A stretch of 64,000 bases of DNA, taken from the IMG/VR virus record IMGVR_UViG_2791355504_000004, positions 1,527-65,526 of that record, one strand, 5' to 3'. Positions 7,629-62,554 of the stretch are shown in pieces (the first letter of the stretch is position 1; each line of letters opens with the position of its first letter). Origin of the DNA: a virus (lineage: Duplodnaviria; Caudoviricetes). Position numbers and translations under genes: made by a program. Under the pieces are notes generated by a model. It worked only from the letters and a program-made list of their open reading frames with translations, was not told the origin of the DNA and made no database searches.

Positions 7629-7649
7629 AGAAAATTTCCTTAAGTTCAC

Positions 7650-10615: not shown

Positions 10616-10688
10616 AAGAACTCCACAAAACTTTGCTGTTCATTTTCATGTTGTTTGGGGCTGCTTTAATTCGATTTGGGGGTGTGGC

Positions 10689-15273: not shown

Positions 15274-15280
15274 ATGTCCC

Positions 15281-15294
15281 CCCTCTAAGGTTAG
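15281..15294 (+). promoter_or_regulatory. Late-promoter motif copy 1
   Basis: CCCTCTAAGGTTAG upstream of terS. Confidence 0.75.
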
Positions 15295-15345
15295 ACCTCC
15301 CCACATATATACATGATCATTAAACCAATATGAGGTTTGGTGATC

Positions 15346-21402: not shown

Positions 21403-21527
21403 ATTGCTCCCCAAGTAAAAAAACATCTACTATATTGCATTTATTGGTTATAAATGCAATATAAGTCACTGATTTATTTTAATTGTGTATTTCAAAAAAA
21501 TTACGTATAAGCAAAAAATACCTACCC

Positions 21528-41119: not shown

Positions 41120-41174
41120 CTAATAAAACAAATACTGAATAACCATACATGATATTTATAGTTGAGTAAGTGTC

Positions 41175-43103
41175 ATGTACGGCTTAAAAAAACGTTCAAA
41201 GCAAGATGAAAGTGGACAAATTCAAGGTGCAGGTACTGGCACTTCTGATGATATTAAAAAAACGGTACCCAGTGGCAGCTACATTATGCCTGCTGATTCT
41301 ACCCAAAAGATTGGGATTGATAATTTAAAAAATATGGGGAGTCCCACACCAGTCAATCTCAGTAACGGTGAATTCCAACTCTCGCCTGACCAAGTTCATT
41401 CGGTGGGTGTGCAAACACTTAATGCCATGAAAGATCAGACGCACATGCCTGTTGATCAACCTCAATTGGGTTTTAAGCCTGGCCAGAATAAACCTGAGTT
41501 ATTTTTTGCGAATGGTGGATTGGTATCAAGCCCTTATCCAAGCGCAGATGATATTCGACGAGCCCAACAAAATAGAGTTGGTGGGCCACAAATGCGTGAT
41601 GTCACACCAATTAATCGTCAACTTCCAGCAACATCAACTACACCTTCAACAACTAGCTCACCATCTGCAAGTCCAAGTAATACAGCACCAGCACAAGGTA
41701 GTAGTTTTGGTGCGGGGTTTAGTTCATTACGTCAAGGTATTAACCGTGCTGCAAATAGTAAACTTGGTAAATTGGGTACAGTTGGTGCTTTGGCAAGTAC
41801 AGGCTTTGCTGTAGGCGATACACCAACAGAACAATATCGTGAGCGTTTCGGTTTGGGTGATTATAATCCTGATGATTCTGATGGTATGCGATTTGCAAAA
41901 GATCTTGGTGTACGTGCTTTAGGTGCTGCATCTGATCTAGGTGTTGCCATGACATTAGGTCAGGCTGGTCGGTTTTATGCTGATAAACAACGTATTGCAA
42001 GTGAAGCAAAAGCAGCTCAACCTGAATTTAATGCTAAACAGAATAATCCAAATCCTGTTGTAAATAATCCATTTGGTAATCCTAAAGCACCACCTGTAAC
42101 TCAAACACAGCCTGAAGTCCAAACTCAATCAAGCACTGTACAGAATTCTGATCCTTATGTTATTCAGCAAAAAGGAAATAGCTTTAGTTATGCTAATCCT
42201 GGTGCAGCTGCCCAAGCACGAGCAGATGGAGTTCGAGAAGGTGAAGGGTTGGGCTTTAAAGTACGCCCTGCAAATGATCCTAAAGGTGTAGCAAATTTCA
42301 TGCAGAATACACGTGAGATGGGACCATCTGAACAACAGATTCAAAATGCAATCGCTCAACGTGAAATGAATTTAGGCTTGGGTATGCAAGGTTATGGCAA
42401 TAATTCTGTTCAGGCACCTCAGCGTAATGATGCACAGGAGGCAGAGCGCCAATCTGTAATTAAAGCAGCCAGTACACCAATTGCTGGTGCCAGAGGACTG
42501 ACAGCTAATCAAATCCGCACTTTATCTGATTTACAGCAAGGTGAGGATAATCGTGCGAGTCAACGTTATACGACTGATGCAAACAACGTCGCTGCTTTAC
42601 AGCGTGAAGCTATGGGGCAAGCTGGACAGAATTATCGTACAGAACTAGGTGAGCAAGGTACAAATAACCGATTTAATGCAAATTTAGGTTTTGATGCACA
42701 AAAGTTTCAAGCTACCAATGATTTGGCAAACCGAGAATTTAATTTAAATGCTACTGAGAAAGGCTTTGGGATTCGTAACTCGCAACGCTTAGAAAAATTG
42801 TATGAACAATATGATTCTGCGAAATCCGATGAAGATCGTAAATCAATTCAAGAAAAAATTAACCGTTATACAGGTAGTAAAGCTGATACAGGAAAAGATC
42901 GTTATATGACTGTAGGTGGTGGTCAAGAGTGGAATGAAAAGTCTGGAACTATGGTAAATAGACCTCAACAGTTATTTGATACACAATCTCAGCGGTTTAT
43001 TGATACGCCACAAGGAAAAACTGCACAACGAGCTGTTGGTACAATTTCTAAAGTAGGCGACAAAACCGCTGTTTGGGATGGTAAGGACTGGGTTCAACAG
43101 TAA
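41175..43103 (+). CDS. Probable DNA ejection (internal virion) protein
   Basis: GAGTGTSDDI/LSNGEF/FANGG motifs; low-complexity Q/A/N/G-rich; precedes the giant internal protein gene. Confidence 0.7.
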   Translation: MYGLKKRSKQDESGQIQGAGTGTSDDIKKTVPSGSYIMPADSTQKIGIDNLKNMGSPTPVNLSNGEFQLSPDQVHSVGVQTLNAMKDQTHMPVDQPQLGFKPGQNKPELFFANGGLVSSPYPSADDIRRAQQNRVGGPQMRDVTPINRQLPATSTTPSTTSSPSASPSNTAPAQGSSFGAGFSSLRQGINRAANSKLGKLGTVGALASTGFAVGDTPTEQYRERFGLGDYNPDDSDGMRFAKDLGVRALGAASDLGVAMTLGQAGRFYADKQRIASEAKAAQPEFNAKQNNPNPVVNNPFGNPKAPPVTQTQPEVQTQSSTVQNSDPYVIQQKGNSFSYANPGAAAQARADGVREGEGLGFKVRPANDPKGVANFMQNTREMGPSEQQIQNAIAQREMNLGLGMQGYGNNSVQAPQRNDAQEAERQSVIKAASTPIAGARGLTANQIRTLSDLQQGEDNRASQRYTTDANNVAALQREAMGQAGQNYRTELGEQGTNNRFNANLGFDAQKFQATNDLANREFNLNATEKGFGIRNSQRLEKLYEQYDSAKSDEDRKSIQEKINRYTGSKADTGKDRYMTVGGGQEWNEKSGTMVNRPQQLFDTQSQRFIDTPQGKTAQRAVGTISKVGDKTAVWDGKDWVQQ

Positions 43104-43107
43104 TACG

Positions 43108-43127
43108 TAGTCACCTTCTGGTGACTA
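43108..43127. terminator. Hairpin after ejection gene, upstream of CRISPR leader
   Basis: TAGTCACC-ttct-GGTGACTA. Confidence 0.55.
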
Positions 43128-43139
43128 TTAATTACATTG

Positions 43140-43279
43140 CATTTGCCCACCAATATTTTATGACTCTTTAATTGCTTAATAAAATCAATAGGTTATAAAC
43201 GTGAGTTAAAACTTTGGTCTTTTATGGATTTTTAGTATTAACTCGCTGTTATAACTTTATTTTTTGCTATAAAATTACT
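43140..43279 (+). promoter_or_regulatory. Type I-F CRISPR leader
   Basis: AT-rich ~140 bp; IHF consensus WATCAANNNNTTR = AATCAATAGGTTA at 43183-43195; extended -10-like TGCTATAAA next to the first repeat. Confidence 0.8.
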
Positions 43280-44207
43280 GTTCACTGCCATATAGGCAGC
43301 TTAGAAATTTTACTCCTAGCACTCCAAATGTTAAGCGTAGTTCACTGCCATATAGGCAGCTTAGAAATGCAGGGTTAAATGCAACAGCAGTACCATATGG
43401 TTCACTGCCATATAGGCAGCTTAGAAATAACTCCATCCATCCTGCACCAAGCCACTTCTGTTCACTGCCATATAGGCAGCTTAGAAATTACGAATCAGGT
43501 CAATACGCAGAGGTTTTGCGTTCACTGCCATATAGGCAGCTTAGAAATGAACGATAATTTCAGGAAATTGTGTTTCTTGGTTCACTGCCATATAGGCAGC
43601 TTAGAAAGCAAAGAAAGGCGAGAAGGGCGACCAAGGTATGTTCACTGCCATATAGGCAGCTTAGAAAATAAAAAAAGTTTACACGCTCATCGGTAGCCGG
43701 TTCACTGCCATATAGGCAGCTTAGAAATGATTCGTAAGGCATTCCTTAAGCTCCTGCAAGTTCACTGCCATATAGGCAGCTTAGAAATTCCTATTGATTC
43801 TCTTAACCCACTGCAGAACGTTCACTGCCATATAGGCAGCTTAGAAATTAAGAATCTCAACCAATCCTGCGAACGTCATGTTCACTGCCATATAGGCAGC
43901 TTAGAAAACCAACAAATGGCTCAACCCATTTTGTAATTCGTTCACTGCCATATAGGCAGCTTAGAAAATGAAGAATCAAAAGGTCAAGTTGGTCTATTGG
44001 TTCACTGCCATATAGGCAGCTTAGAAAGATCAGGGATGAATCAACAAAGCTATTTGTCAGTTCACTGCCATATAGGCAGCTTAGAAAACTTCATAAAAGC
44101 CTGCTTTTGTAAAATTGTCGTTCACTGCCATATAGGCAGCTTAGAAAATAATAAGTAAAAGCTATTTGATGCGTTCCTTGTTCACTGCCATATAGGCAGC
44201 TTAGAAA
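43280..44207 (+). CRISPR. Type I-F CRISPR array, 16 identical 28-bp repeats and 15 unique 32-bp spacers; no cas genes in window
   Basis: GTTCACTGCCATATAGGCAGCTTAGAAA every 60 bp from 43280 to 44180; CTGCC/GGCAG Cas6f-type hairpin. Confidence 0.99.
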
Positions 44208-44262
44208 ATCTAAAGATTATTTATATAACACCTAAACTGGTCATGGGAAAAAGCATAAAAAT

Positions 44263-44286
44263 AAAGCGACCTAATTGGTCGCTTTT
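44263..44286 (+). terminator. Terminator downstream of the array
   Basis: AAAGCGACC-taatt-GGTCGCTTTT. Confidence 0.75.
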
Positions 44287-44361
44287 GTTCACTTTTTATA
44301 TTGATAAACTATTTATAAAAGTGAAAAATAAAAATCTACTTTATAAACAGATGAATCTATT

Positions 44362-44571
44362 ATGATTAATTATGAATTAATTTTTGAAGAACTCCATGCT
44401 ATGCAACCCAAAGGAGTGAAATTTTTTAAAGATCATACATCACAAGAGTTTGAAGAATTAAATAACTTTCTAGAAGATAATCAATTTGAACTTGGAATAG
44501 AGATAAAACCCCATAGGGAGAGTCAAACTGGTCATCGAGCTATAGATGCAATTCTGGTTAAAAAGTTATGA
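44362..44571 (+). CDS. Small hypothetical protein
   Basis: 69 aa ORF between two terminators. Confidence 0.6.
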   Translation: MINYELIFEELHAMQPKGVKFFKDHTSQEFEELNNFLEDNQFELGIEIKPHRESQTGHRAIDAILVKKL

Positions 44572-44598
44572 TTTTTTGGGCTGAAAAATTTCAAAAAG

Positions 44599-44626
44599 AT
44601 ACCCCACAACTTAGATTGTGGGGTAT
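44599..44626. terminator. Bidirectional terminator
   Basis: ATACCCCACAA...TTGTGGGGTAT. Confidence 0.75.
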
Positions 44627-44631
44627 TTGTT

Positions 44632-45492
44632 TTACTTACTCGCTAAATATCTACCAGTTGTGAGTAATTCATTGCCATACACAAAATCAAGTAATCCGTC
44701 GAATTTTTTAGCAAACTCTGCAAGATTTATAGGGTAGTAGCCTTTAAGTAATGGCATGGCTGATAATTGCCCATCATCTCTGACTTGTACAAACCAAGAG
44801 TGGTAGTGACCACCGTTATATTCATTGTTGATTTGCTGTGCCACCTGAATGACTTGTTGAGGATATGGCAGGGCTTCGACTTCCTGTTTTTCAGATTTGG
44901 CTTTAATTTCCATTGTTTCTAAATAGTGAACTGCTTCTGGGAAATGGATTGCCAATAACTCAGCATAACGTGGAATTTTAAAGTGACGATTATGTCTAGC
45001 CCACATCTCAGCAAAGATTTTGCGCTCACCGCCTGAACGACGAGAAACAATTTCATGCAACAAGGCTTGCTGTTCTGGTGAGATGGATTGGCGGTCATTG
45101 ATTTTCCACTGCATTACCAAAGCATCGTAAGCACGAATCACAATCAAGTGGAACTTTGCGGAGATCCACATTGCATATGCGTAAACTATTTCTTTGACAG
45201 CGTACGTCCCACGATTATTACCACCATTGATTACTTTTACAGCACTTCTCATATTTGAGAAGTGGTTGTTTTCAATAAGGCTCATATCCGAGACTTGTTC
45301 AATCTCTTTAATTAACTCTTGAATTTGCTCAACACGTAAAAAGTTAGATGGCTTATGCTTAGCAAGATTGCCACTTGCTTTATGTAAATCAGCAAGTGAA
45401 TATCGCCCATCTTCGTCTTGGCGAATAATGAGTTCACCAATTACTAAAGGTTGGTTGTTTGGATTTAAAAGATTTTGTTGTATAGTAGTCAT
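44632..45492 (-). CDS. ant: Antirepressor (KilA-N domain plus C-terminal Ant-type domain)
   Basis: IRQDEDGRYSLADLHKAS, GTY...YAMWIS..F; W.R...HF....Y.EL. Confidence 0.88.
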   Translation of the reverse strand: MTTIQQNLLNPNNQPLVIGELIIRQDEDGRYSLADLHKASGNLAKHKPSNFLRVEQIQELIKEIEQVSDMSLIENNHFSNMRSAVKVINGGNNRGTYAVKEIVYAYAMWISAKFHLIVIRAYDALVMQWKINDRQSISPEQQALLHEIVSRRSGGERKIFAEMWARHNRHFKIPRYAELLAIHFPEAVHYLETMEIKAKSEKQEVEALPYPQQVIQVAQQINNEYNGGHYHSWFVQVRDDGQLSAMPLLKGYYPINLAEFAKKFDGLLDFVYGNELLTTGRYLASK

Positions 45493-45573
45493 GTTGACTT
45501 TCCTGTAAGTTGTTGACACATAAAACCTTGTTAATTCTTGGCGGAAGGCAAGGTTTTTTTGTGCCTGTTGATT

Positions 45574-45750: not shown

Positions 45751-45836
45751 GCCACACTTTGTGGCGTTTGATAACTATAGCCACACTTTGTGGTAATGTA
45801 AATAGATCAAGACAACATTTTGCCACTTTTTGTGGC
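45751..45836. promoter_or_regulatory. Three palindromic operators between the divergent RHH genes
   Basis: GCCACACTTTGTGGC (45751), GCCACACTTTGTGGT (45780), GCCACTTTTTGTGGC (45822). Confidence 0.85.
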
Positions 45837-45847
45837 ATGAGGAATTT

Positions 45848-46174
45848 ATGAGCAACCAAGCTGACCACACAATTGTTAGATTGCGCGTTCCGCCTGAACT
45901 AAAATTAAAAATTGAAAAGTCGGCTGAAGACAATAATCGCTCTCAAAGCGCAGAAATGGTTTCGCGCCTTGAAAATAGCTTTATTTCAACTAGAGTTGCA
46001 TCGGACCCATATAAAAGAATGCTACTAGCTGTTATAGCGCAAGTTGTTGCGGAACAAGCAGATAAGGAAAAACCATCCTTCCAAGAAGCTATTGATAAAA
46101 TTACAAAAGCAATCATGGTAGATGAAGAGTGGTTTGATAAAGTTAATGGTCAATTAAAAAACCAAAAAAAGTAA
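45848..46174 (+). CDS. Arc/Mnt-like RHH repressor
   Basis: VRLRVPPELKLKIEKSA..NNRS..AEMV.RL. Confidence 0.88.
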   Translation: MSNQADHTIVRLRVPPELKLKIEKSAEDNNRSQSAEMVSRLENSFISTRVASDPYKRMLLAVIAQVVAEQADKEKPSFQEAIDKITKAIMVDEEWFDKVNGQLKNQKK

Positions 46175-46226: not shown

Positions 46227-46835
46227 TTAATTACACTGCAATTGCCCACCAATATCTCGGCACATACGACCATTATTATAATAAGTGCCACTATTGCCAT
46301 TATAACGGTTGCCTTGATTATCCCAGCATCCAGATCCATCACAGTTAGTCATATGGGTTGGTGTTGGTGCTTGTGGCATTGGTGCTGAGTAAGAGTTATT
46401 TGAGTTTGAATAACTATCACCACTAGAAACATTTACACCATTCATTGCCGCAAGAGTATTGCGTTGATTAGCAGTTAACCCTTTTGAATTCTTATATGGT
46501 GTGCTCGCTTCATTAATAATTTTCTGTCTCAATGCTTCATTTTCAGCAGAACGTACCTGTTGACGTGTTTGGCTATAACTAGAGGTAGTATTATTTTGGT
46601 AAGGATTTACATAAGTATTTGGAATTGATGCATTTGATTTGAAAGTCTGTTTTTGTGTTTCCGTGGGTGTTCCTAAAGAGCGGATAGTTTCTATTTTTTG
46701 TTCTTTCATTCCTTGAGGTGGTTTTTTTCTGGAGTATGTAACATTACCTTTAGCATCAACCCATTTATAAATTTGTTGTGCATTCAAGTTAAAGGATAGA
46801 AGGATAGATAAAATTAGTATGAAATGTTTTAACAT
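46227..46835 (-). CDS. Exported DUF4124-like protein with a segment resembling the phage ejection protein
   Basis: Signal peptide ending LNA; IYKWVDAKGNVTYS..PP motif; Cys-containing C-terminus. Confidence 0.82.
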   Translation of the reverse strand: MLKHFILILSILLSFNLNAQQIYKWVDAKGNVTYSRKKPPQGMKEQKIETIRSLGTPTETQKQTFKSNASIPNTYVNPYQNNTTSSYSQTRQQVRSAENEALRQKIINEASTPYKNSKGLTANQRNTLAAMNGVNVSSGDSYSNSNNSYSAPMPQAPTPTHMTNCDGSGCWDNQGNRYNGNSGTYYNNGRMCRDIGGQLQCN

Positions 46836-46894
46836 CTGGATTCTCTATTTCTGATTATTATCATTTAAGATTGCTTTTTGAGCATTTTCAATAC

Positions 46895-46908
46895 CCCTCT
46901 AAGGTTAG
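46895..46908 (+). promoter_or_regulatory. Late-promoter motif copy 5
   Basis: CCCTCTAAGGTTAG followed 20 nt later by CATGAT. Confidence 0.75.
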
Positions 46909-46959
46909 ACCATTTTTAATATAAAAAACATGATAGACGCATAATATTAGGAGTGCGTC

Positions 46960-49900
46960 ATGTCTGAGCAAAACCAAATTGATTGGGAAAAAGGGGAAAT
47001 TCAAGAACCAAGTCAAACTGATTGGGATTCTGGGGTAATTTCTCAATCGAAGGAAAAGAAGGAAAAAGGTTTTCTTGGACAAGCAAAAGATCATACTATT
47101 TCATTTGTAGGTAAAGGTGCTGTAGCTGGCGGGCAAATATTGGTTGGACTTTCTGATTTAATGTCTGATGGTGCGACTGGCAAGGTTTTATCTGAAAAAT
47201 TTGGTTATGACCCGAAAGCTACTAATCAAGAAATGACCAGATGGCAAACTCCACAATTACAAGAACAAATAAATCAAAAAGCCCAACTTCCTATACAAAA
47301 AATAGAAGAGGAAGATGACATTCCAACAACAGTTGGGAAGCTCTTTAATAACTCAAAAGAATATTTGAAATTCTACAAAGACAATCCCGCAATGATTAGC
47401 AATAGTGTTGCAGAATCCTTAATTCCAATAGGAGTTAGTGCTGCACTTGGTCGAGGTACAGGTATTGCTAATCCTATTGTTGCTGCTTCGGTTGGCGAGG
47501 GTATTGGAATGGCGGGCAGCCAAGCTGAACAAATTCGCCAAGAGACTGTAGATGGACGCTTAACAGCAGATCAATCCTTAGCAAGTGCAACAACAGGTGC
47601 CCTTGGCGGGTTGATTGGCTTTGCTGGTGGTCGTCTTGCCCAGAAAATGGGAATTGGTGATGTAGATACCATGCTTGTAACGGGGCGAGCTGGTCCAGCA
47701 GAAATTGCTGGTGAGATTGCTTCAATGCCTGCGAAGTCTTTACCTCGTCGTATGGTTGAAGGTGCTATTTCAGAAGGATTTTTAGAAGAATTACCCCAAT
47801 CCGTTTCTGAACAAATTTTACAGAACTTGGCATTAGATAAGCCTTGGAGTGACGGTATTGAAGATGCCGCTGTCATGGGCACATTGGCTGGTATGGCAAT
47901 GGGTGGTGGTGCCAATATCTTGTCTGGCCATAATGCTGAAAATGAACAGCAACGAGCGATAGAAAAAAATAAGGAGCTGTCTGAAGCTGAATATCAAAAA
48001 ACCTTGCTAGATGAATACCATCTACGTTCGCAACAGGAACAAGAGAAGGTTTGGAATGCAAAAGATGATGAGAATTTTTTAGCTAATATATCTCATCATA
48101 TCAATAATATGAATGGACGATACCTGAATCAACCCACAGAGGAAATGGGTGATTTAGGTAACCAGATTGGTACAAGTATTAATCCCAACTTACTTGAATT
48201 TAATTCAAATAATGATCCTGATGCACCAATTAATCCTAATCCAACAAACACACCTAACCCAGATAGCCCACTTTCTCCGAGTGGTGGAAACTATTTTGAT
48301 GATACTCAAACACAGTTACAGCTACCGTCAGAACGCTTGGGTATTAATCCAAGTGATGGACCAATGTCATCAGCAGCAGCTTTGGCGGTGGATAGTGGTG
48401 CTTCACCAGTTGCACAATTAAGTTTTACCCCAGAACAACAGGATAGTAATTCGCCATTAAGTGATGCTGTACCATCTAATTACCAATCGCTACTTGATAG
48501 CCAGACAAACCAATCACAGATTGATTATCTTGAACAACAGTTTACAGATGCTAAAAGTGTGCCTAAAAAGGCCGAGATTCGTAAACAAATTGATGAACTC
48601 AAAACTAGCAATCCCATTACTGAAAATCAGACAAAACCTGTATTTAATACTGACGCTAATCTTTCTGTTGGGTCACTTCCTTGGTCAAAGGATATTGCTA
48701 GTCAGGCTTTACAGCAGTATCAGGGTGATACCAATTCGTTAGAGCAAACAAATCAATCTTTAACGGGAAAAGGCGCAGCGACTGATCTTATTTACTATAA
48801 AAACTCACCATCATTTAGTAATGTTGAAGTTGTTGATGCAGGTGATAAATCGATTGTTAAGTTGACCAATGCTAAGACAGGTCAAGTGGTTGAGCGTGAG
48901 TATCCGCAGGAGTTGTCACGATTTAATCAGTTCTTGGAGGGTACGGTAAATCAAAGTACAGAACAATTAGATATTCCACCAGAAACAAAACAAGTTTCAA
49001 CGATCGTACCGCTAAGTGAACAACTTACTCAGCTTGAACAACAGTTCTCAGCAGCTAAGACTGTTCCGCAGAAAGCCAAATTGCGTAGACAGATCGAAAC
49101 TTTGAAACAAGGGAATAATACATTCAATCCCGAAGTATTGGACCATGGTGTTTTAAATGTGCCTTTAGCTAAACGCGGTAATATTGATGCCCAAATTGAT
49201 CAATACAAGTCTGAGCAAAGTAAATTATTAAAAGATCAAAGTGAAACCAAAAAAAATGAACATAAGGCAGCTCAGAATCAAGCAAAGCCTTTGTTTGAAG
49301 CATTAACAGCAGAACATATTAATACTTATGCAAATAAGGCTGGAATCAATGCTGCAAATGCTAAATCAGAATTAAAAAGCATGGCGCATTGGCAACCTCA
49401 AAAAGCAATGAAGGTTTTTGAGGCTTTAAAGTCAATTTCGGAATCGAATTCATCTCCAATTGACACGAATGCACATGAAGCGGCTACGAGTCCACAAAAT
49501 GATTTACCAGCACCAACACAAGCGCAGATTGAAGCTGGCAATTATAAAAAGGGGCACATTAAAGTTCAGGGCTTAGATATAGCTGTTGAAAACCCTCGGG
49601 GTTCATCTCGTTCAGGTAAACGACCTGATGGAACAGAATGGTCGCATGAAATGAGTGACCACTATGGATACATCAAACGGACTACTGGTGCCGATAATGA
49701 GCACATTGATACTTATATAGGGAGTAACCCAGATTCAAACCAGGTATTCATTGTAGATCAGCTTGACCAAAAAACAGGTAACTTTGATGAGCACAAGGTT
49801 ATGCTTGGATTTAACAGTCAGGAAGATGCTACCACAGCATATAAATCAAACTTTGATAATGGATGGATAGTAGGTCCTATCCGTACTATGGATATGGAAC

Positions 49901-51981
49901 AGTTTAAAAACTGGCTTAAAAATGAGGATACCTCAAAACCTGCCAATGAAATAAAGGCTGATTCCCTTATCACTCACGGTGCGAATGTTAAAGCGCAATC
50001 CGAACAAGGCTTAAATACTTATACTCAGATTCAATCTGATTCAGGCTTAACCCATAGCATCCCTAGCAAACTAATGGATCAGGTACATAAGTTAGGCAGT
50101 ATTGCGAATGACTTGTCGAGCATAAAAACGGAAGGTGTAAAAACCAATGTGCTGTATGGCAAACGATTGTTGGCCAAGATTGCAAAGCTTAATCCTGATG
50201 TGCAGGTGCACATTGTTTCTGATTTGATCAATATTAAAGACAAAACTACTCGATCTAGACTTAGTTCAGGTGGTTTTTATATCCCTGATCAGAACATTTT
50301 GTATATTTATCCTAAGACGGAACTTTGGGAAGGTTCAGTTTTAGAGCTAATAAACCATGAGTTGACACATACTGTCACAGAGCAATCGATTACCAAAAAC
50401 CAAGTATCCAATGAAAATTTAGATAAACTTGAACAATTTAGAAGTATTCTAGGGGAATATATTTGGAATCAAGGTGAGAACCTTGATGAAAATATGGCTG
50501 AAAGATTGCGTTATGCATATGAGCAGGACTTTCCTCATGAATTACTTGCGGTGAGTGCTGCTGAAACCAATGTGCGTGAAGTTTTTAAAACAATGCTTGG
50601 TCAGGATGGATTCAAGCAATTAGATGCAATATTTACCGAAATTTCTACCAATCAGTTCAAAGAGAAACGAGATGATCGATTATCCACACGAGGTCAAAGT
50701 CAGCAGCCGAGTCGAGATCGCGCAGAAAATATATCAACAAGCGACACCAGAACAGCAAAATCAGATGGAGCCACTGCTCACTCAAGTGATGGAGTTACAG
50801 TCTCAACCGCAGACAAATCATCAGGAACGAAAGAAAGTTCAGCACGAGCTGCTCAAATTAATGAATCAAATGGCTCATATTCTGACAACGGACGTAAAAG
50901 TGTTTTCAAAGATTCAGGAAGGGGTAGCAGAGAAGCACTGGGAGGAATATCTGAAGAAGATAAACAGTTAAAAAAGAATAATGAAAAGAAACGTTTTAGC
51001 CATGCTAATAAAGCAGTTGAATCATCTACAGTAGCTCAAATTCGAGAAGTCTTGGTTAACCATTTTGGGGAAAAGACAATCAATGAGCTTGAACGTCAGG
51101 GTAAGCTTGAAATTATTCAAGACTATGCTGTAGATGGAGTAGAAGGATTTTATTACAACGGTAAAGCCGTTCTTATTGCATCAAATCTTACTCTTGAAAG
51201 TGCTGTGCCAACATTCTTACATGAGTTGGGTGGCCATGCTGGTTTTCAAAATATGATGAACCAGGAGCAATATAAGGAGTTAATGCGTCAGTTTGATAAG
51301 TTGGTCGAACAAGGTAATCCAGTTGCTATGGCGGCTAAATTACTTGCAGAACGCGAACAAGGCAGCGTTCGCCAACAACTTGAATATTTACCATATCTAT
51401 TAACGCTTTCATCAACGATGCAGCAACGTAATGTAATTCAACGCAATGCTCTTCAAAAATTGATCCGCAATATCGTCGCATATGTGAAAGCATGGGCATT
51501 TGATCGATTTGGTATAAATCTAAACCTAAATCCAGATGATATATTGGCGTTATCGGAACGCATGATTAAACAGATTGAACGCCAGACCTCAATGGATACT
51601 GTTCGCCAAAAATATCAGGGCACGAGTCAATGGATGACTGCTCCCAATGGGGCGAAGACGCATCTGTCAGAACAGCAATGGTTGCAGGTTCGTACGCCAG
51701 AATTTAAGAAATGGTTTGGTGACTGGGAAAATGATGCAGAGAATTCCTCTCAGATCTTAGATGAGAATGGGGAACCTAAGGTTGTCTATCATGGTACTTC
51801 CAGTGAATTTAATGAGTTTAGAAAAGGTCATGGTTTATTAGGTGAGGGTATTTATTTAACTGATAGTTTTGATACTGCTGATATGTACGCCAATGTCCGT
51901 GGTAAAAATGGTTTTGTATTACCTTTATTCGTGAATATTCGCAATGCATTTAAAACGACTGGTAATGTCTCTCGAGATTAA
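46960..51981 (+). CDS. Large polyvalent internal virion protein, N-terminal part (InPase-like, zincin-like, start of ART-like domain), ending at an in-frame TAA
   Basis: EAGNYKKGH...HYGYI...GAD..HID; HELTH and HELGGH; RTPEFKKWFGDW...GEPKVVYHGT. Confidence 0.85.
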   Translation: MSEQNQIDWEKGEIQEPSQTDWDSGVISQSKEKKEKGFLGQAKDHTISFVGKGAVAGGQILVGLSDLMSDGATGKVLSEKFGYDPKATNQEMTRWQTPQLQEQINQKAQLPIQKIEEEDDIPTTVGKLFNNSKEYLKFYKDNPAMISNSVAESLIPIGVSAALGRGTGIANPIVAASVGEGIGMAGSQAEQIRQETVDGRLTADQSLASATTGALGGLIGFAGGRLAQKMGIGDVDTMLVTGRAGPAEIAGEIASMPAKSLPRRMVEGAISEGFLEELPQSVSEQILQNLALDKPWSDGIEDAAVMGTLAGMAMGGGANILSGHNAENEQQRAIEKNKELSEAEYQKTLLDEYHLRSQQEQEKVWNAKDDENFLANISHHINNMNGRYLNQPTEEMGDLGNQIGTSINPNLLEFNSNNDPDAPINPNPTNTPNPDSPLSPSGGNYFDDTQTQLQLPSERLGINPSDGPMSSAAALAVDSGASPVAQLSFTPEQQDSNSPLSDAVPSNYQSLLDSQTNQSQIDYLEQQFTDAKSVPKKAEIRKQIDELKTSNPITENQTKPVFNTDANLSVGSLPWSKDIASQALQQYQGDTNSLEQTNQSLTGKGAATDLIYYKNSPSFSNVEVVDAGDKSIVKLTNAKTGQVVEREYPQELSRFNQFLEGTVNQSTEQLDIPPETKQVSTIVPLSEQLTQLEQQFSAAKTVPQKAKLRRQIETLKQGNNTFNPEVLDHGVLNVPLAKRGNIDAQIDQYKSEQSKLLKDQSETKKNEHKAAQNQAKPLFEALTAEHINTYANKAGINAANAKSELKSMAHWQPQKAMKVFEALKSISESNSSPIDTNAHEAATSPQNDLPAPTQAQIEAGNYKKGHIKVQGLDIAVENPRGSSRSGKRPDGTEWSHEMSDHYGYIKRTTGADNEHIDTYIGSNPDSNQVFIVDQLDQKTGNFDEHKVMLGFNSQEDATTAYKSNFDNGWIVGPIRTMDMEQFKNWLKNEDTSKPANEIKADSLITHGANVKAQSEQGLNTYTQIQSDSGLTHSIPSKLMDQVHKLGSIANDLSSIKTEGVKTNVLYGKRLLAKIAKLNPDVQVHIVSDLINIKDKTTRSRLSSGGFYIPDQNILYIYPKTELWEGSVLELINHELTHTVTEQSITKNQVSNENLDKLEQFRSILGEYIWNQGENLDENMAERLRYAYEQDFPHELLAVSAAETNVREVFKTMLGQDGFKQLDAIFTEISTNQFKEKRDDRLSTRGQSQQPSRDRAENISTSDTRTAKSDGATAHSSDGVTVSTADKSSGTKESSARAAQINESNGSYSDNGRKSVFKDSGRGSREALGGISEEDKQLKKNNEKKRFSHANKAVESSTVAQIREVLVNHFGEKTINELERQGKLEIIQDYAVDGVEGFYYNGKAVLIASNLTLESAVPTFLHELGGHAGFQNMMNQEQYKELMRQFDKLVEQGNPVAMAAKLLAEREQGSVRQQLEYLPYLLTLSSTMQQRNVIQRNALQKLIRNIVAYVKAWAFDRFGINLNLNPDDILALSERMIKQIERQTSMDTVRQKYQGTSQWMTAPNGAKTHLSEQQWLQVRTPEFKKWFGDWENDAENSSQILDENGEPKVVYHGTSSEFNEFRKGHGLLGEGIYLTDSFDTADMYANVRGKNGFVLPLFVNIRNAFKTTGNVSRD
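50672..50971 (+). CDS. Candidate overprinted gene (99 aa, +1 frame) inside the polyvalent protein gene
   Basis: Helical protein-like sequence coinciding with an S/R/G-rich linker of the main frame; AGAGAAACGAG upstream of ATG. Confidence 0.5.
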   Translation: MIDYPHEVKVSSRVEIAQKIYQQATPEQQNQMEPLLTQVMELQSQPQTNHQERKKVQHELLKLMNQMAHILTTDVKVFSKIQEGVAEKHWEEYLKKINS

Positions 51982-52017: not shown

Positions 52018-54843
52018 GTGGTTCATCATTTTGATGATCATGAGTATATTGTTGCTCTTGAGTCTAATCAGGTCAAAATGGCTGAAGGGAATACTGGTAC
52101 ATTCAATAGTGAAAGTGCAGATATTCGATTCAGCCGTTCTGCGAAGGATATTATTGATAAACTTGGTAAAGACCTTAAAGGTACTACGGTCCAATCAATT
52201 AAAGATAAAACTGGTTATAAGTTTACTGATTGGTTGGGTATTAGTTTATCGGCTCTAGGTCGTCGTCAACTCACTGAGATTTACAGTAAAATTTTGCCAC
52301 AGCTAAATAAATATAATGAACTGGCTACTCAAATGGATGCGGATAAGAATGATGCTGGTGCAGAAGCTGATAGCATTGTTCGGGAATGGTCGAACCTTAA
52401 AGATGAAGAGCAACTTGCAGAGCTTATGCATGATGCAACTTTGGCAATGATTGATCCCGTAAAACCTTATAAATCTGGTGATAATAAAGCGAAGTATCAG
52501 CAGCTATTACATGCATACAACGACCTGACTCCAGAAGCTCAAGCGATGTATAAAAATGCGCGTGATGCCTATAAAAAACATTACACCAAAGTACATCAGG
52601 CCATTAAAGAACGGATTATGCGCGCCGAACTTTCGAGTGAAAAGAAAGCCGATTTAATGAAGCAAATGGATGACAATTTCTTTAATGGTCGGATTAAAGG
52701 TGTTTATTTTCCATTAGCACGCTTCGGTAAATATGTGGTTTTGATGCATAACCAAAATGGGCAAATCGAAAGTGTAAGTCGTGCAGAAACCATGGCAGAG
52801 GCACAGCGTTTACGTTCTGAATTGATGCAGAAATATCCACACTTCAAAGTAGACCGTGTCATTTTAGATAAAGAATTTAATGCATCACGTGATGGCGTAG
52901 GCCGTGGCTTTATGACCAGTTTATTTGCAGAAGTAGACAATCTTGGATTATCAACAGCAGAGCAGGCTGAATTTGAAGATACATTGAGTCAATTGTATTT
53001 GTCTTCTATGCCAGATTTAAGTTGGGCAAAACATGGTATTCATCGTAAAGGCACTGCTGGATTTAGTCAGGATGCACGTCGGGCATTTGCGCAAAATATG
53101 TTTCATGGAGCAGGGTATCTCGCTAAACTGCGATATGGCGATCAGTTAGCACAGCAGCTTGATGATATGCAGAAATATGCATCTGAACAAAGCAAGCTAA
53201 ATGACAGTTATGACCAGCCTACGGCTCAACGTGTCATTGATGAAATGAACAAATGCCATGACAATTTAATGAATCCTAAATCTCATCCATTATCGAGTGC
53301 TTTAACCAGTTTAGGCTTTATTTATTACCTTGGCTTGTCACCAGCTTCAGCATTGGTCAACTTATCGCAGACAGCATTAGTCGCGTATCCGATTATGGGT
53401 GCCAAATGGGATTTCGATAAAGCAGCCCAAGAGTTGTTGAAGGCATCAAATGATTTTAGAAAAGGGGTTGAGTTCCACAAAGTGAAATGGGAGGGAACTA
53501 AAACCGACCTTTATAAAACCATGAGTGCAGACATTTCTAAATTCCTGAGCAAGGATGAAAAGCAGGCTTACGATGATGCTGTAGCTAGAGGTGTGATTGA
53601 TGTTACACAGGCACATGATTTAGCTGGTATTGCACAAGGTGAAGATAGTGGTGTGATGTGGAAGACACGTCCAATTATGCGTGCAGCAAGTGTGATGTTT
53701 CACCATGCAGAGAGATTTAACCGAGAAGTTACTTTTATAGCTGCATATCGATTAGCTCGAAAAGCAGGTTCAAGCCATGATTCAGCCTTTGATCAAGCGG
53801 TTGATGTAACCTATAAAGGTCATTTTGACTATAGCTCAGGAAACCGCCCACGTATTATGCAGGGCAATGTTGCTAAGGTCCTTCTGCTGTTTAAACAGTT
53901 TGGCCAGAACATGATTTACACATTAGCGCGTCAGACCTATCAATCAATTAAAGCTGAAACAGCAGCAGAGCGAAAAGAAGCTCGTAAAACACTTGGGGCA
54001 ATTTTAGCAATGCATGCAACATTTGCTGGTACGCTTGGTTTACCAATGGTAGGGATGCTGTTATCTGTAGCATCATGGATGGGTGGAGATGACGACGATC
54101 CTTGGGATGCAGAAGTTGCATTACGGAACTATCTAGCTGAAGCTTTTGGACCAACTATTTCAAATCTATTAATGAAAGGTGCACCTCGTGCACTGACACC
54201 TCTCGATATGTCGGGACGCGTAGGTATTAATAATTTGTTATTACCAGATGTACAAGAAGGTCTTGAAGGTAAACGTTGGGCTGAATCTGCTATGGCTGGT
54301 GCATTAGGCCCTGTTGCAGGTATAGGCCTGAATGTTGCGAAAGGTGCACAAGAAATTTCAGAAGGGCATAATTTACGTGGCATAGAAACGATGCTTCCAG
54401 TGTTCTTAAAGAACTTTGCCAAAACTTATCGTTATGGTGAGGAAGGTGTACAGGACAAAACGGGTGTATCCATCATGGACGAAGTCAGTTCAATGGATTT
54501 ACTTGTCCAAGGTATGGGTTTTTCTCCATCTGATGTACGCACGGCCAATGAAGGTAAATCAGCAATTTATCAGCTTGATAAAAAATTAAATGAACGTCGT
54601 GGTCGCTTAATGGCTTTATGGTCCAGAGCCAAATTGATGGATGATCAAAATGAGATGGACGAAATTTGGGAAGAAATTCAAGGATTCAATGAAAGAAATC
54701 CATCTCGTCGTATCACTCGAGTCAATTTGAATCAGAGTTATAAGAATCGTCAACGTCGTATTGATCGTTCTGAAGATGGCATTTATTTGTCACGGAATAG
54801 ACAAGATGCCCGAAGTGCCGGTTATTTTGCATTTGGTGAGTAG
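52018..54843 (+). CDS. Large polyvalent protein, C-terminal part with PLxRFG domain; same frame as 46960-51981
   Basis: YFPLARFGKY motif; in frame after a single TAA. Confidence 0.85.
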   Translation: MVHHFDDHEYIVALESNQVKMAEGNTGTFNSESADIRFSRSAKDIIDKLGKDLKGTTVQSIKDKTGYKFTDWLGISLSALGRRQLTEIYSKILPQLNKYNELATQMDADKNDAGAEADSIVREWSNLKDEEQLAELMHDATLAMIDPVKPYKSGDNKAKYQQLLHAYNDLTPEAQAMYKNARDAYKKHYTKVHQAIKERIMRAELSSEKKADLMKQMDDNFFNGRIKGVYFPLARFGKYVVLMHNQNGQIESVSRAETMAEAQRLRSELMQKYPHFKVDRVILDKEFNASRDGVGRGFMTSLFAEVDNLGLSTAEQAEFEDTLSQLYLSSMPDLSWAKHGIHRKGTAGFSQDARRAFAQNMFHGAGYLAKLRYGDQLAQQLDDMQKYASEQSKLNDSYDQPTAQRVIDEMNKCHDNLMNPKSHPLSSALTSLGFIYYLGLSPASALVNLSQTALVAYPIMGAKWDFDKAAQELLKASNDFRKGVEFHKVKWEGTKTDLYKTMSADISKFLSKDEKQAYDDAVARGVIDVTQAHDLAGIAQGEDSGVMWKTRPIMRAASVMFHHAERFNREVTFIAAYRLARKAGSSHDSAFDQAVDVTYKGHFDYSSGNRPRIMQGNVAKVLLLFKQFGQNMIYTLARQTYQSIKAETAAERKEARKTLGAILAMHATFAGTLGLPMVGMLLSVASWMGGDDDDPWDAEVALRNYLAEAFGPTISNLLMKGAPRALTPLDMSGRVGINNLLLPDVQEGLEGKRWAESAMAGALGPVAGIGLNVAKGAQEISEGHNLRGIETMLPVFLKNFAKTYRYGEEGVQDKTGVSIMDEVSSMDLLVQGMGFSPSDVRTANEGKSAIYQLDKKLNERRGRLMALWSRAKLMDDQNEMDEIWEEIQGFNERNPSRRITRVNLNQSYKNRQRRIDRSEDGIYLSRNRQDARSAGYFAFGE

Positions 54844-57985: not shown

Positions 57986-58927
57986 ATGACAGTGCCTTTT
58001 GATGGGTGGGATATATTCCCTGATCATGTTGCTTTAGGTAGGTCGGCCATTATAAATGCTAAAAAGGATGCACTTGCATCAACAGCCGTACTTACAGCTG
58101 ATGCGGCTCAAGTGGCTAAAGTATTAGGGAAAGGGGTTGCGGGATATGCACTATCAGTAGCAGTTGAGCAGTTGTTAGGAGCTGTTGATTGGGTGTTGGA
58201 TCCTGCGAATAATCAGATTAAATATAAACCAAAAATAGAAAGCCAGTATATTTACACTCCTGCAGCATGGGGGAATGGAACATATTTCTCGACGCCGCAG
58301 CAAGCTTGTGAATATTCACTATCGCTCATTCAAAAAATGCGACCGGATATAGGATACTCAAGTGTCAGTTTGGATGATAAAGACTGTATTTACGTTTCAC
58401 CCTATGGAGTGGAAAGATTATTATATGTTAAGAAGGTTAATCCTGATTATGATGGCAATTCTGAAAAATATCTGTCCTTAGAAACTGTTGCTCAAAAAGT
58501 AATTGAAAATGCAGATGCTGGAAGTCTAGATGCTCAAGTGGCCACAATGGCGGCAGCCGCAGAGAAACTTGCAGATGCTGCAAATGATGAAGAGATAGAG
58601 CAAGCGATTGTGGATCAATTGGAGAATAATGCCAAATGTCCAAGTGGTATAATGAGTGAAAAAGGGCAATGCTGGGAGTGCACCAAAGAAGATTACCCAG
58701 TAATTACTCAGAGAACCAAATTAGCCAAAGTAGAAACTGCTCGTTTAGGTAAGTGTTTGCCTGAAATGGACAATACAGCATTATTTATAAGAATTAACGC
58801 TTTTAATGAGTTTGTCCAAGCTAGAGTAAATGAAAATTCTTGCTGGGCTCCTCTAGATCCAGGACATGTTCAGCAAGAGCAAGATGGTAGAAATGGGGCT
58901 TTAAAATGTACAAATTATCTCAAGTAG
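57986..58927 (+). CDS. Chimeric protein: inovirus pIII/TspB-like N-terminal fragment plus Ntox16-like C-terminal domain
   Basis: VAGYALSVAVEQLLGAVDWVLDPANNQIKY; C-terminal AR...N.C...DPGH...C pattern. Confidence 0.55.
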   Translation: MTVPFDGWDIFPDHVALGRSAIINAKKDALASTAVLTADAAQVAKVLGKGVAGYALSVAVEQLLGAVDWVLDPANNQIKYKPKIESQYIYTPAAWGNGTYFSTPQQACEYSLSLIQKMRPDIGYSSVSLDDKDCIYVSPYGVERLLYVKKVNPDYDGNSEKYLSLETVAQKVIENADAGSLDAQVATMAAAAEKLADAANDEEIEQAIVDQLENNAKCPSGIMSEKGQCWECTKEDYPVITQRTKLAKVETARLGKCLPEMDNTALFIRINAFNEFVQARVNENSCWAPLDPGHVQQEQDGRNGALKCTNYLK

Positions 58928-59517
58928 ACCAAATTTTTATTCAAGAGCTGCATGATGCTTTTGATGATGTTCATTTGGAAGATAGATTTACTCTCTTAGA
59001 AGAGGACTTTGCAGATACTAGTTACTTGAGAAGGTATCCTCATCAACAGCCTTATGATTTGAATGCTGTAGATTATTTTTCGAAGAGCAATCTACTCAAT
59101 GAAATAAAAAACAGTGACTTATTGGTTGGTGAAAAAAATGATTTAATTTTAGCAATTAATGAAGAGCAACGAGTTATTAATCATTATCGAACATGGGGAG
59201 TTGTACCATTTGAGTATTTGAATAAGTACGCACATGGATTTTACTTCATTACACCTGAGGCATATGTATTTTACACACCCGTTTTAATTTTAAACTTAGT
59301 TTTAAACCCAGAATTTTTTAAAGGTGTGGCTTTTGATAAGTGGCTTTCAAGATTATTAATGGAAGTAAATGAACATAACTCATTAACTTTATTTAATAAT
59401 AATCAGTCAAGATTAATAAAAAAATTTCTCAGTAATATTTTATTAAATAAATCTATTATTGATTTTATAGAGGCTGGAGACGTCAAAAGAGCCCTAGAAA
59501 AAATAAATAAAAATTAA
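58906..59517 (+). CDS. DUF6714-like putative immunity protein
   Basis: AFDDVHL...FYFITPEAYVFYTP pattern; overlaps the 3' end of the candidate toxin gene. Confidence 0.55.
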   Translation: MYKLSQVDQIFIQELHDAFDDVHLEDRFTLLEEDFADTSYLRRYPHQQPYDLNAVDYFSKSNLLNEIKNSDLLVGEKNDLILAINEEQRVINHYRTWGVVPFEYLNKYAHGFYFITPEAYVFYTPVLILNLVLNPEFFKGVAFDKWLSRLLMEVNEHNSLTLFNNNQSRLIKKFLSNILLNKSIIDFIEAGDVKRALEKINKN

Positions 59518-61187: not shown

Positions 61188-62204
61188 TCATGCTGCAACT
61201 AACATCTTTGCAATTTCAGAAGCAGTAGGATTGTAATATGTGTTTACAAGTACGCTAATGGTTTTATGCCCTGTAATTTTAGCGAGAATTTCGACAGGTA
61301 GCTTATAGTTATGCACAAACCGAGTGATTGCTTCATGGCGTGTATCATGGAAATGAATTTTACCATCTAGGCCAACACGACGAAGATTGCGCTCCCAAAC
61401 TAATCTGAATGAATTCGATGTATGAGGGATGAGGCGATAATCACCTTCTGGAATATCAATCCACGTTAGCATTTCTTTAGCTCGAGCAGTTAATGGTACA
61501 TCACGATTGGTACCGTTTTTGGTATCAAATAGTTTGATGTAATCTTCAAATATATGCTCTTTACGTATACCTAAAATTTCACCTTTACGCATTGCTGTTT
61601 CAAGCGCGAATAAGAAGCCCCACGCAATAAAGTGCCTTGGTTGGGTTGGTTCTTTACCCCAGTGGTAATCCAACCCTTTTAAAATGGTTTCTTCATCTTC
61701 TTTAAATATACGTTGATGACGTGCAGGTGGGGTAGTTGGCTTTGAAATTTCTTTAAAGGGGTTATCTTTCGTCAAAAATAACTCTTTGCGGGCATAGTCA
61801 AATACAGAGCTGTACAAACCCATTTGACGAATGACAGTTCCTGATTTAACAGATTTAAGACGTTTATCTCGCCATTGCTTTACTTTGATAGGGGATAGAT
61901 CATGAATAGATTCTTCTGCTAAATCACCCCATTGGCTTTTTAAAGACTTAAGTTGCTGCAAAATAAAGGCAGCACTTTTCATTCTTTTACCAACTTCATT
62001 GTAGTATTGGTCAAGAAGGGAGTAAAAAGAGATATGAATTTTTTCAGCTTCCTCGGATTGAGGAGCTGAAGATTGTAGTTCGAGTAGTTTCTTTGCCGCC
62101 CATTGTTCGCATTCTTGAGCTGTATCTCGGGTCGCTGTGAAGCGATTTCCTTTGTAGCGAACAACAATACGCCAAGCATTGCCGCGTTTGACAGGTTTTT
62201 GCAT
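61188..62204 (-). CDS. int: Tyrosine recombinase (prophage integrase)
   Basis: TAMRKGEI (R), TKNG (K), FHDTRH, GHK, YY catalytic set; GGAG RBS before MQKP. Confidence 0.95.
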   Translation of the reverse strand: MQKPVKRGNAWRIVVRYKGNRFTATRDTAQECEQWAAKKLLELQSSAPQSEEAEKIHISFYSLLDQYYNEVGKRMKSAAFILQQLKSLKSQWGDLAEESIHDLSPIKVKQWRDKRLKSVKSGTVIRQMGLYSSVFDYARKELFLTKDNPFKEISKPTTPPARHQRIFKEDEETILKGLDYHWGKEPTQPRHFIAWGFLFALETAMRKGEILGIRKEHIFEDYIKLFDTKNGTNRDVPLTARAKEMLTWIDIPEGDYRLIPHTSNSFRLVWERNLRRVGLDGKIHFHDTRHEAITRFVHNYKLPVEILAKITGHKTISVLVNTYYNPTASEIAKMLVAA

Positions 62205-62216
62205 ATACACTCCAAA

Positions 62217-62282
62217 TTTCTGGTGTCGCAACGGCACCAAAATTTAGAAAAGGACAAAAGACCCTAACTTTTTTGGTGTCGG
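62217..62282. promoter_or_regulatory. Candidate integrase arm-type sites in the att region
   Basis: TGGTGTCG at 62221 and 62274, inverted CGGCACCAAAA at 62232, related TTGGTGCCGCA at 61166. Confidence 0.5.
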
Positions 62283-62414
62283 TGCGGAAATATAAAGCGT
62301 TTTTTAATGCGAAATTTGATTATTTTGAATAACCAAAGCTGACCTATCGACAATAAAAAACAAGCCGAAAAGTCCTAAAAACCTTTCAGCTTATTGATTT
62401 TAAAGAATAAATTT

Positions 62415-62490
<76 letters not shown>

Positions 62491-62554
62491 AATATGGATG
62501 TGCATTATAGAGAGTTTAATTTTACTGTCAACTCTCTATAATGCAATTGCTGAA

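Follow-up and report, generated by a model that had tools for sequence, protein, structure and literature searches.

What is a CRISPR array of type I-F with 15 spacers doing in a prophage that has no cas genes? We addressed this question for a 64,000-nt stretch of DNA, here called the window, which comprises bases 1527–65526 of the 65,526-nt IMG/VR provirus record IMGVR_UViG_2791355504_000004 (CheckV completeness 100%). Our results indicate that the element, a temperate Acinetobacter phage, probably captured a leader–array module that would draw in trans on Cas6f, the surveillance complex, and Cas2/3 of the host to attack temperate phages that compete with it, and that may also take up new spacers. 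The module and its borders consist of the following features.

43107–43128, + strand: hairpin directly 3' of the stop codon of a gene for a 642-amino acid (aa) protein, followed by a short conserved phage stretch to 43149 (left junction).
43146–43279, + strand: CRISPR leader, 134 nt, with an IHF consensus at 43183–43195.
43280–44207, + strand: CRISPR array of 16 repeats and 15 spacers; the 43308 end is where the newest spacer is expected.
44208–44295, + strand: trailer without a degenerate terminal repeat; terminator-like hairpin at 44263–44285, then a T-run.

The array is made of 16 exact copies of the 28-nt repeat GTTCACTGCCATATAGGCAGCTTAGAAA at a 60-nt period, and the 15 spacers between them are all different and each 32 nt long. 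A pattern search of the whole record found the repeat 16 times in forward and 0 times in reverse orientation, with 0 matches for the reversed control pattern, and the Rfam family CRISPR-DR4 (gathering score 35) matched 16/16 repeats on the + strand at 44.8 bits. The repeat hairpin CTGCC-ATATA-GGCAG (−7.8 kcal/mol) has the 5-bp stem and 5-nt loop expected of Cas6f substrates; this hairpin, the 3' CTTAGAAA handle, and the 32-nt spacers are those of a type I-F array of the CRISPR-DR4 kind. The original prediction, made from the letters alone, had described these identical repeats and unique spacers together with an upstream hairpin, an IHF consensus in the leader, a terminator, and the lack of a degenerate terminal repeat, and all of these stood up to computation. 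The upstream hairpin folded at −16.2 kcal/mol (z = −6.3), a value equalled by 0/200 shuffles, and was not called as a terminator because it has no T-run. The hairpin in the trailer has 9 pairs, 5 of them G-C, with T-rich tails on both strands. No repeat-like 28-mer beyond the 16 was found in the whole window at up to 9 mismatches, and the phage array therefore has no degenerate terminal repeat. The region 44208–44640 also had no match in the chromosomal array loci compared, and both the missing last repeat and the unmatched trailer are consistent with truncation at the trailer end. A comparison with the terminal repeats of chromosomal arrays was dropped, as a scan with up to 5 mismatches was unable to gauge their degeneracy.

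The leader could be traced to the intergenic region that separates cas6f from the array in bacterial type I-F loci. Identity to such cas6f–array leaders was 123/134 in G238 and 121/134 in G156, genomes of two sister species, and 118/134 in A. pragensis. In G238, the homology begins 1–3 nt past the cas6f stop codon, and the phage therefore has the whole intergenic leader and nothing of cas6f. The IHF consensus WATCAANNNNTTR (43183–43195) lies 97 nt before repeat 1, and 19 of the 29 other upstream stretches, taken from arrays with the same repeat, had the motif at −96/−97; those without it were mostly non-Acinetobacter loci or leaderless single repeats. Homology to cas-adjacent I-F leaders and an IHF site are again features of a type I-F array. 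The exact repeat occurred in 44 stretches of the species-genome collection, of which 39 were titled Acinetobacter. The G238 locus is of type I-Fv and encodes Cas1f, a 982-aa Cas2/3, Cas7fv, a 336-aa protein at the Cas5fv position, and Cas6f; for G156 we compared Cas6f, the 336-aa protein, and part of Cas7fv, all of which were 97–99% identical to those of G238. The closest relatives of the leader are thus type I-Fv loci, with the caveat that such loci are without Csy1–3.

Exact scans of JGI metagenomes for a 28-mer across the left junction and a 32-mer of the trailer returned 0 and 0 matches. Among other loci with the repeat, the small leader-bearing arrays of L026, L011, L028, and L042 were considered as prophage-borne and rejected, because flanking genes for TonB receptors, ThiF, and dehydrogenases place them on chromosomes. 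A match to ‘Acinetobacter phage MD-2021a’ (H21; CAKLQF020000007.1, CAKLQH020000006.1 = L152) was likewise rejected as a phage array: in these records a repeat pair lies between cas1 and a cas3-like helicase gene, an adenylate cyclase gene is also present, and they look like bacterial contigs filed as phage. Solitary repeats, exact or with 1 mismatch, were seen at L021 and L048 (A. brisouii; G020:C1:1207507 and 1246919), L093 (G158), and L094 (G159). No array was detected at these four loci, and no Cas6f in G158 and G159; such repeats may have been left behind when loci were lost, or may be solitary repeat units.

In agreement with the original prediction, the phage yielded no cas gene. Searches by tblastn with Cas1f, Cas2/3, Cas7fv, the 336-aa Cas5fv-position protein, and Cas6f of G238 gave no match in the window or in the 1.5 kb that lies left of it in the record, the result for the record was 0/1 with each of the Pfam families Csy1 and Csy3, and PADLOC returned only a DEDDh exonuclease and weak helicase-type matches for ten unannotated proteins. 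The array is therefore isolated, with no cognate cas genes beside it. The expectation that the host would supply I-F cas genes held for the probable source isolate, sequenced in run X1, but not for the conspecific representative G233, in which neither the repeat (up to 3 mismatches) nor Cas6f was detected; the sister species G238 and G156 have both. We aligned X1 contigs to the G238 cas locus at a likeness of at least 80%. A 52,650-nt contig spans the leader plus 405 nt at the 3' end of cas6f (35 differences in 461 nt), then 6503 nt that replace 4880 nt of the effector and cas2/3 part of G238, and continues with the 5' end of cas2/3, the entire cas1, and flanking host genes. So, judged from this contig, the probable host has a chromosomal I-F locus at the same site as G238, with a middle that is diverged or different and whose length would fit an I-F1 effector set. 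Comparison with L150 (G238:C1:2098340-2110000) points to an I-F locus that is mosaic or has swapped subtype, in a chromosomal position that is conserved. Contigs of runs X21 and X22 gave no alignment to the cas locus, which argues neither for nor against its presence.

The same run bears on the integrity of the phage locus. A 25,899-nt contig of X1 contains 54 nt of leader followed by the reverse complement of window positions 43120–43149, and the junction between phage and leader was therefore recovered in an independent assembly; misassembly, which the original prediction had named as a possible flaw, was thus checked at the left junction. Both X1 contigs end at one leader position, and a 118-nt contig covers the remainder into repeat 1, so the phage and host leaders would be identical over the ~106 array-proximal nt. 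A wastewater metagenome from a separate study contained 0.69 of the words of the 2.1-kb stretch 42700–44800.

Two spacers have identified targets, and both lie in the host species. Spacer 14 matched G233 at 32/32 positions (G233:C14:407399-407430; L125 10000-10031) and spacer 1 at 31/32 (G233:C15:425362-425393; L126 9963-9994), and the cysS region of this genome is 98% identical to the window. The target of spacer 14 is a minor tail protein gene (PHROG 30) in the tail module of a lambda-like prophage, and that of spacer 1 is the tape-measure gene in a myovirus-like prophage module with baseplate and tail fibre genes; both prophages are unrelated to the carrier phage. The proposal that the spacers are directed at other phages was thus borne out for these two. 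In type I-F systems, protospacers are preceded by 5'-CC as protospacer adjacent motif (PAM), and CC precedes both protospacers. In G120, a less well matched copy of the spacer 14 site (28/32) is preceded by AA instead of CC. G233, which harbours both targeted prophages, has no I-F repeat or Cas6f; this fits an array that would exclude just those phages thriving in Cas-less strains of the species.

Two further spacers carry PAM evidence of another kind. Spacer 4 and spacer 8, the latter as its reverse complement, share an end-to-start overlap of 10 nt in which each places CC before the other; 0/300 shuffles reached an overlap of at least 9, the maximum being 8, in 4 shuffles. A pair of spacers taken from the two strands of a single 54-nt target is what primed I-F adaptation typically yields. 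CC PAMs, a further property of type I-F arrays, are therefore in evidence for 4/15 spacers, for spacers 4 and 8 solely from their mutual overlap and with no identified target. Spacers 13 and 15 (44028–44059 and 44148–44179) have a common 11-nt substring on the same strand (rough chance estimate ~0.02) and may come from related targets.

Other searches gave no full-length target. The spacers had no match in the window itself, in 14 related IMG/VR virus records, or in 9 related genome loci. BLAST of the array against INPHARED phages returned 10 records at E up to 1, none with a full spacer and the longest match being 24–28 nt. The matches of spacer 6 to Pseudomonas, Vibrio, and Xanthomonas phages (26/28, 24/24) sit in genes annotated as tail fiber protein, tail assembly protein, or hypothetical protein; they were rejected as a target and look like a conserved motif. 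PLSDB yielded 47 matched records, of which the best 40 were repeat or array matches with no full spacer match. An exact scan of IMG/VR for spacer 2 found 0 sites, and spacer 4 was found at up to 3 mismatches in 0/247 genus genomes. In the genus-wide BLAST of the array, repeat matches appeared in 77/247 genomes and masked the spacer signal, so that only 15 genomes with weak or few matches were re-searched, and spacer matches in array-bearing genomes may be missed.

Kin phages also carry repeats of this kind. We compared larger regions of 23 relatives, namely the 9 best species-genome matches and all 14 IMG/VR matches to the 642-aa gene, and in 3/23 we found two degenerate repeats with one 31-nt spacer, on the opposite strand of the 224-nt gap between an 847-aa gene and the 642-aa gene.

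L077, 11997–12083, + strand: mini-array.
L079, reverse strand, ~10622–10708 of the reverse complement: mini-array.
L109, reverse strand: mini-array.

The 3' handle is preserved in the first repeat of these mini-arrays, and the hairpin in the second. In most other family members, the spacer has a match where the ribosome-binding site and start codon of the 642-aa gene lie, with 3–6 mismatches and always with CC before it; the carriers L077, L079, and L109 themselves differ at the target site. In the window the target is 41150–41180 (4 mismatches), with the PAM as GG on the + strand at 41181–41182. The phage lineage therefore exploits I-F machinery. A further two-repeat unit with a phage-like look lies at L014 1614–1701, on a 4.7-kb contig of A. 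sichuanensis, flanked by genes for a Bro-N domain protein and an RNase_T-type exonuclease.

Taken together, the array, the leader homology, the absence of cas genes from the phage, the host locus, and the PAM-bearing targets are computational findings that support the borrowing of host Cas as originally proposed, and the predictions of that proposal which computation could address were all borne out. A temperate Acinetobacter phage, integrating at a tRNA-Gly site beside cysS, would have captured the leader and array from a type I-F locus; the captured module, truncated at its trailer end, would comprise 16 repeats and all of the intergenic leader between cas6f and the array, and would have settled in a variable accessory slot between the 642-aa gene and a polyvalent-protein gene. 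In a lysogen or infected cell with a compatible I-F system, the array would be transcribed from its own leader, and host Cas6f would cleave the transcript at every repeat hairpin. The resulting CRISPR RNAs (crRNAs) would load into the host surveillance complex and direct Cas2/3 to rival temperate phages with CC-PAM protospacers, and prophage and host would both be shielded from competitors. Since the conserved IHF site is retained and the phage leader matches that of the host, host Cas1–Cas2/3 could also add spacers to the phage array, which would make it an immune memory travelling with the virion.

Several observations weigh against this account. We infer expression, crRNA processing, interference, and spacer uptake of the phage array, and a consensus scan called no sigma-70-like site on the + strand within the leader, where the original prediction had placed a −10-like element. 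For 11/15 spacers there is no identified target and no PAM evidence. The conspecific G233 is without an I-F system, and therefore many hosts of the phage would leave the array inert. The probable source isolate was assigned to run X1 from word share, with 0.79 of the words of 42700–44800, and the central 6.5 kb of its cas locus, whose likeness to the I-Fv reference is below 80%, might be an I-F1 set, an I-Fv set that has diverged, or an operon that has been disrupted. Finally, the repeat was absent from the gap between the 642-aa and polyvalent-protein genes in 23/23 relatives and found in 0 other IMG/VR contigs; this singleton status fits a recent, possibly neutral capture.

A bolder version of the borrowed-Cas reading is possible, if doubtful: the phage array may be a working acquisition site to which host Cas1–Cas2/3 adds spacers, including by priming, so that updated memory would be carried to new cells by a lineage in an arms race with borrowed Cas. 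Acquisition by the phage array would follow from a leader identical to that of the host over ~106 nt, and the opposite-strand overlap of spacers 4 and 8 would be a hint of priming. In such an arms race, the mini-arrays of kin phages would aim at the start of the 642-aa gene, including the copy of this phage, and the 15 spacers of this phage at unrelated prophages.

It is unlikely that the module is a neutral hitch-hiker, acquired in a single illegitimate recombination event with the CRISPR locus of a host and kept as inert cargo without benefit to the phage. The array is absent from 23/23 related phages, and its exact repeat from all other IMG/VR contigs; however, three kin phages independently bear a mini-array in the adjacent slot that is directed against kin phages. 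The trailer is truncated and without a terminal degenerate repeat, but the leader is complete to within 1–3 nt of the cas6f stop codon with its IHF site kept, all 16 repeats are identical, and a terminator follows the array. Likewise, G233 has no I-F system, whereas a cas1...cas6f locus whose leader matches is present in the probable host. No array in the 247 species genomes shares spacers with the phage array (the best full-length identity, 72%, is the repeats-only level), yet those targets that were identified belong to rival prophages within the species.

Even less probable is that the array acts as an anti-CRISPR decoy, titrating Cas6f or the surveillance complex or diluting host crRNAs that target this phage, in the manner of repeat-based RNA anti-CRISPRs and regulatory prophage mini-arrays. 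Sixteen Cas6f-binding hairpins per transcript would indeed compete for Cas proteins. For a decoy, unique spacers and a complete acquisition leader would be superfluous, and repeat-based RNA anti-CRISPRs or solitary repeat units have a single or few repeats without bona fide PAM-consistent spacers. In contrast, the phage array has 16 repeats and 15 unique spacers of the canonical 32 nt, four with correct PAMs and two with near-perfect targets in tail genes of rival phages. A regulatory role does have a precedent in the prophage I-F1 mini-arrays of A. baumannii and Moraxella, which Shmakov et al. (2023; 10.1101/2023.03.03.530964), in the section drawn on here, proposed to down-regulate cas genes.

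That a host chromosomal array with the same leader and repeat was threaded, in whole or in part, into the prophage contig by misassembly is very improbable: although the host has a second, largely identical leader at which the Logan contigs break exactly, and the X1 word share is 0.79 and not 1, such a chimera would require two false joins, with a 28-nt repeat to be crossed at one of them, the sequence around the left junction is unique and was recovered by an independent assembly (reverse complement of 43120–43149), the right flank is unique with a homologue of its 69-aa gene in the same slot of L110, and the wastewater metagenome of a different study has 0.69 of the words of the 2.1-kb stretch.

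The preferred reading, a captured array served by host Cas proteins, has counterparts among known systems. Vibrio phage ICP1 reportedly encodes cas genes itself and attacks a defence island of its host. The phage described here is without cas genes and must rely on the host. Both would use type I-F CRISPR for the benefit of a phage, as summarized for ICP1 in part of the work by Bernheim et al. (2019; PMC7145637), which also counts 212 CRISPRs in 26,987 prophages. The closest parallel is found in phiC2-like prophages of C. difficile, for which the portion of Hargreaves et al. (2014; PMC4173771) used here describes cas-less type I-B arrays with 7–24 spacers; the premise of the original prediction that cas-less phage arrays are typically very short thus did not hold. 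As in our phage, the C. difficile arrays lie inside the prophage structural region, without cas genes and adjoining ORF6N/Bro-N-type regulators, and they have repeats of the host family, spacers against phages or prophages of the same species, and presumed processing by host Cas, according to the same portion of that paper (PMC4173771). With multiple spacers, a repeat of the host family, and spacers against phages of the species, the array described here belongs with the C. difficile-type cas-less prophage arrays as they are characterized there. It differs in being of type I-F and in Acinetobacter, in being one array and a singleton in its phage lineage, and in having a complete leader traceable to a cas6f–array intergenic region, with a matching leader in the probable host. 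Pairing with KilA-N/Bro-N/ORF6N regulators, seen here, at L014, and in the C. difficile prophages, hints at a recurrent association of such regulators with phage arrays.

Virus mini-arrays are a second point of comparison. As outlined in parts of Medvedeva et al. (2019; PMC6858448) and Shmakov et al. (2023), these have a leader and no cas genes, depend on host Cas, and target other viruses, and the two-repeat units of L077, L079, and L109 fit this kind exactly as it is outlined there. The array in the window is likewise cas-less, leader-bearing, and virus-borne. However, mini-arrays as outlined in those parts have 1–2 spacers with mostly close-kin targets, whereas this array has 15 spacers, a full leader, and targets in unrelated prophages, and its spacers matched none of the related IMG/VR records and genome loci. 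By analogy, the phage array would work like the mini-array kind, but it is far longer. The preprint text drawn on attributes the rarity of longer viral arrays to loss of the leader region needed for acquisition, and, among cas-less phage arrays, which are rare in themselves, long ones whose acquisition leader is intact are considered even less common (10.1101/2023.03.03.530964, in part). Activity in trans is described in part of a preprint by Malaluan and Dy (2026; PMC13142298) for isolated I-F arrays of P. aeruginosa, which have CR2-like leaders nearly identical to that of the cas-adjacent array, are active in interference and primed adaptation, and have spread horizontally with mobile elements. 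These arrays differ from the present one in occupying chromosomal sites such as ybaK–mmsR; in that part of the preprint, only type I-E orphan arrays are placed in putative prophages (PMC13142298).

Among the papers listed by our literature searches, none described a long cas-less I-F array in an Acinetobacter prophage, which is no proof of nonexistence. Cas-less prophage arrays of this size are a rare phage weapon already known from C. difficile, and the value of this case lies in a well-defined test system and not in a new principle. Because the breakpoint is mapped to 1–3 nt from the cas6f stop codon, a second copy of the leader is present in the probable host, and two targets lie in prophages of the same species, it is a clean natural system in which questions can be raised in a non-model genus about the use of host Cas in trans, the competition of leaders for spacers, and the spread of immune memory by lysogeny. 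For phage–host prediction, it means that a spacer in a ‘host’ array may really belong to a prophage.

The genes around the module define a variable slot in the phage backbone. The features that follow are given in map order.

41175–43103, + strand: 642-aa backbone gene; PHROG 11341 of unknown function, no Pfam match.
44362–44571, + strand: 69-aa accessory gene; no PHROG or Pfam family.
44632–45519, − strand: KilA-N/ORF6C antirepressor-type gene; PHROG 2127 anti-repressor (E = 2.2e-58), KilA-N (E = 6.1e-22), ORF6C (E = 1.1e-4).
45830–46174, + strand: Arc-like repressor gene; Pfam Arc at 24.6 bits (cut-off 20.4), Arc-like PHROG families.
46227–46835, − strand: DUF4124 gene, 202 aa, last of the variable insert; Pfam DUF4124 (E = 1.1e-10).
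46888–51981, + strand: resumed backbone, with a conserved promoter-like motif (~46888–46910) and then the polyvalent-protein gene (1673 aa); Pfam InPase, ART-PolyVal.
61188–62490, − strand: integrase (61188–62240; Pfam Phage_integrase) and tRNA-Gly(GCC) (62415–62490; ARAGORN), the right end of the prophage.

Of the neighbours named in the original prediction, the antirepressor region was recovered in the KilA-N/ORF6C and Arc-like genes, but the label of an ejection protein for the 642-aa product found no support in its families. Homologues of the 642-aa gene were present in 21/247 Acinetobacter species genomes and on 14 IMG/VR contigs, and the 1.5-kb flanks of 24 loci of such homologues in species genomes had no repeat at that place. 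Four distant relatives (L063, L064, L065, and L067) have the stretch 43126–43150 as well, behind their homologues of this gene. In 23/23 relatives the gene order was 847-aa gene, 642-aa gene, and polyvalent-protein gene, with a gap of ~200–2450 nt between the last two as opposed to 3.86 kb here, and relatives align again to 46888–46967 and onward. The insert holds the leader–array unit and the 69-aa, KilA-N/ORF6C, Arc-like, and DUF4124 genes. A 65%-identical homologue of the 69-aa gene lies directly behind the 642-aa gene homologue in L110, and partial homologues of the DUF4124 gene occupy the same slot in L085, L102, L104, L108, L110, and L113. Because these two genes recur there in some relatives, the right flank of the array is tied to this phage slot.

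The prophage nature of the element, also part of the original prediction, is well documented by its gene content. The record encodes a CI-like HTH/S24 repressor (6966–7649), terminase, portal, and major head protein, and a block of large structural or function-unassigned genes; in the late region, the 1673-aa polyvalent protein with InPase and ART domains is followed by a 941-aa DarB-like/LPD39 protein, a GH108 lysin gene, and then the integrase. Host cysS adjoins the tRNA-Gly gene, and homology to the conspecific genome G233 (98% identical), which is prophage-free there, begins only at ~62409, which puts the array ~18 kb inside the element. The left prophage border was left undefined, as no direct repeat of at least 12 nt was found between 62200–62600 and the left 8 kb of the record.

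A ATCCCCCTCTAAGGTTAGAC-like conserved motif occurs at 15279–15298 and 46888–46910, as well as upstream of the 642-aa gene in relatives. It precedes late gene blocks, marks the return of the backbone after the insert, and is probably a phage-specific promoter or activator site. Further downstream, a stop codon near 51979–51981 splits the polyvalent protein into a 1673-aa open reading frame (ORF; 46960–51981) and a 941-aa ORF (52018–54843; LPD39, DarB-like PHROG), which may reflect a real break, readthrough, or two separate genes.

Accessory genes were also seen elsewhere in the element. Two antisense genes lie between the portal and scaffold genes (20149–21426, − strand), and one product of 271 aa has a weak TIR_2 match (E = 4.8e-4, 21 bits; cut-off 28), which makes it a possible defence moron. 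Adjoining the CI-like repressor, a 312-aa protein (5981–6919, − strand) has a weak match to the HipA_2 kinase family (E = 4.7e-6, 26.5 bits; cut-off 27) and no PADLOC match. Past the GH108 lysin gene (57986–59517, + strand), a 313-aa protein with a sub-threshold Ntox16 match (23.7 vs 25 bits) is followed by a DUF6714 protein, and the two may form a toxin–immunity-like pair.

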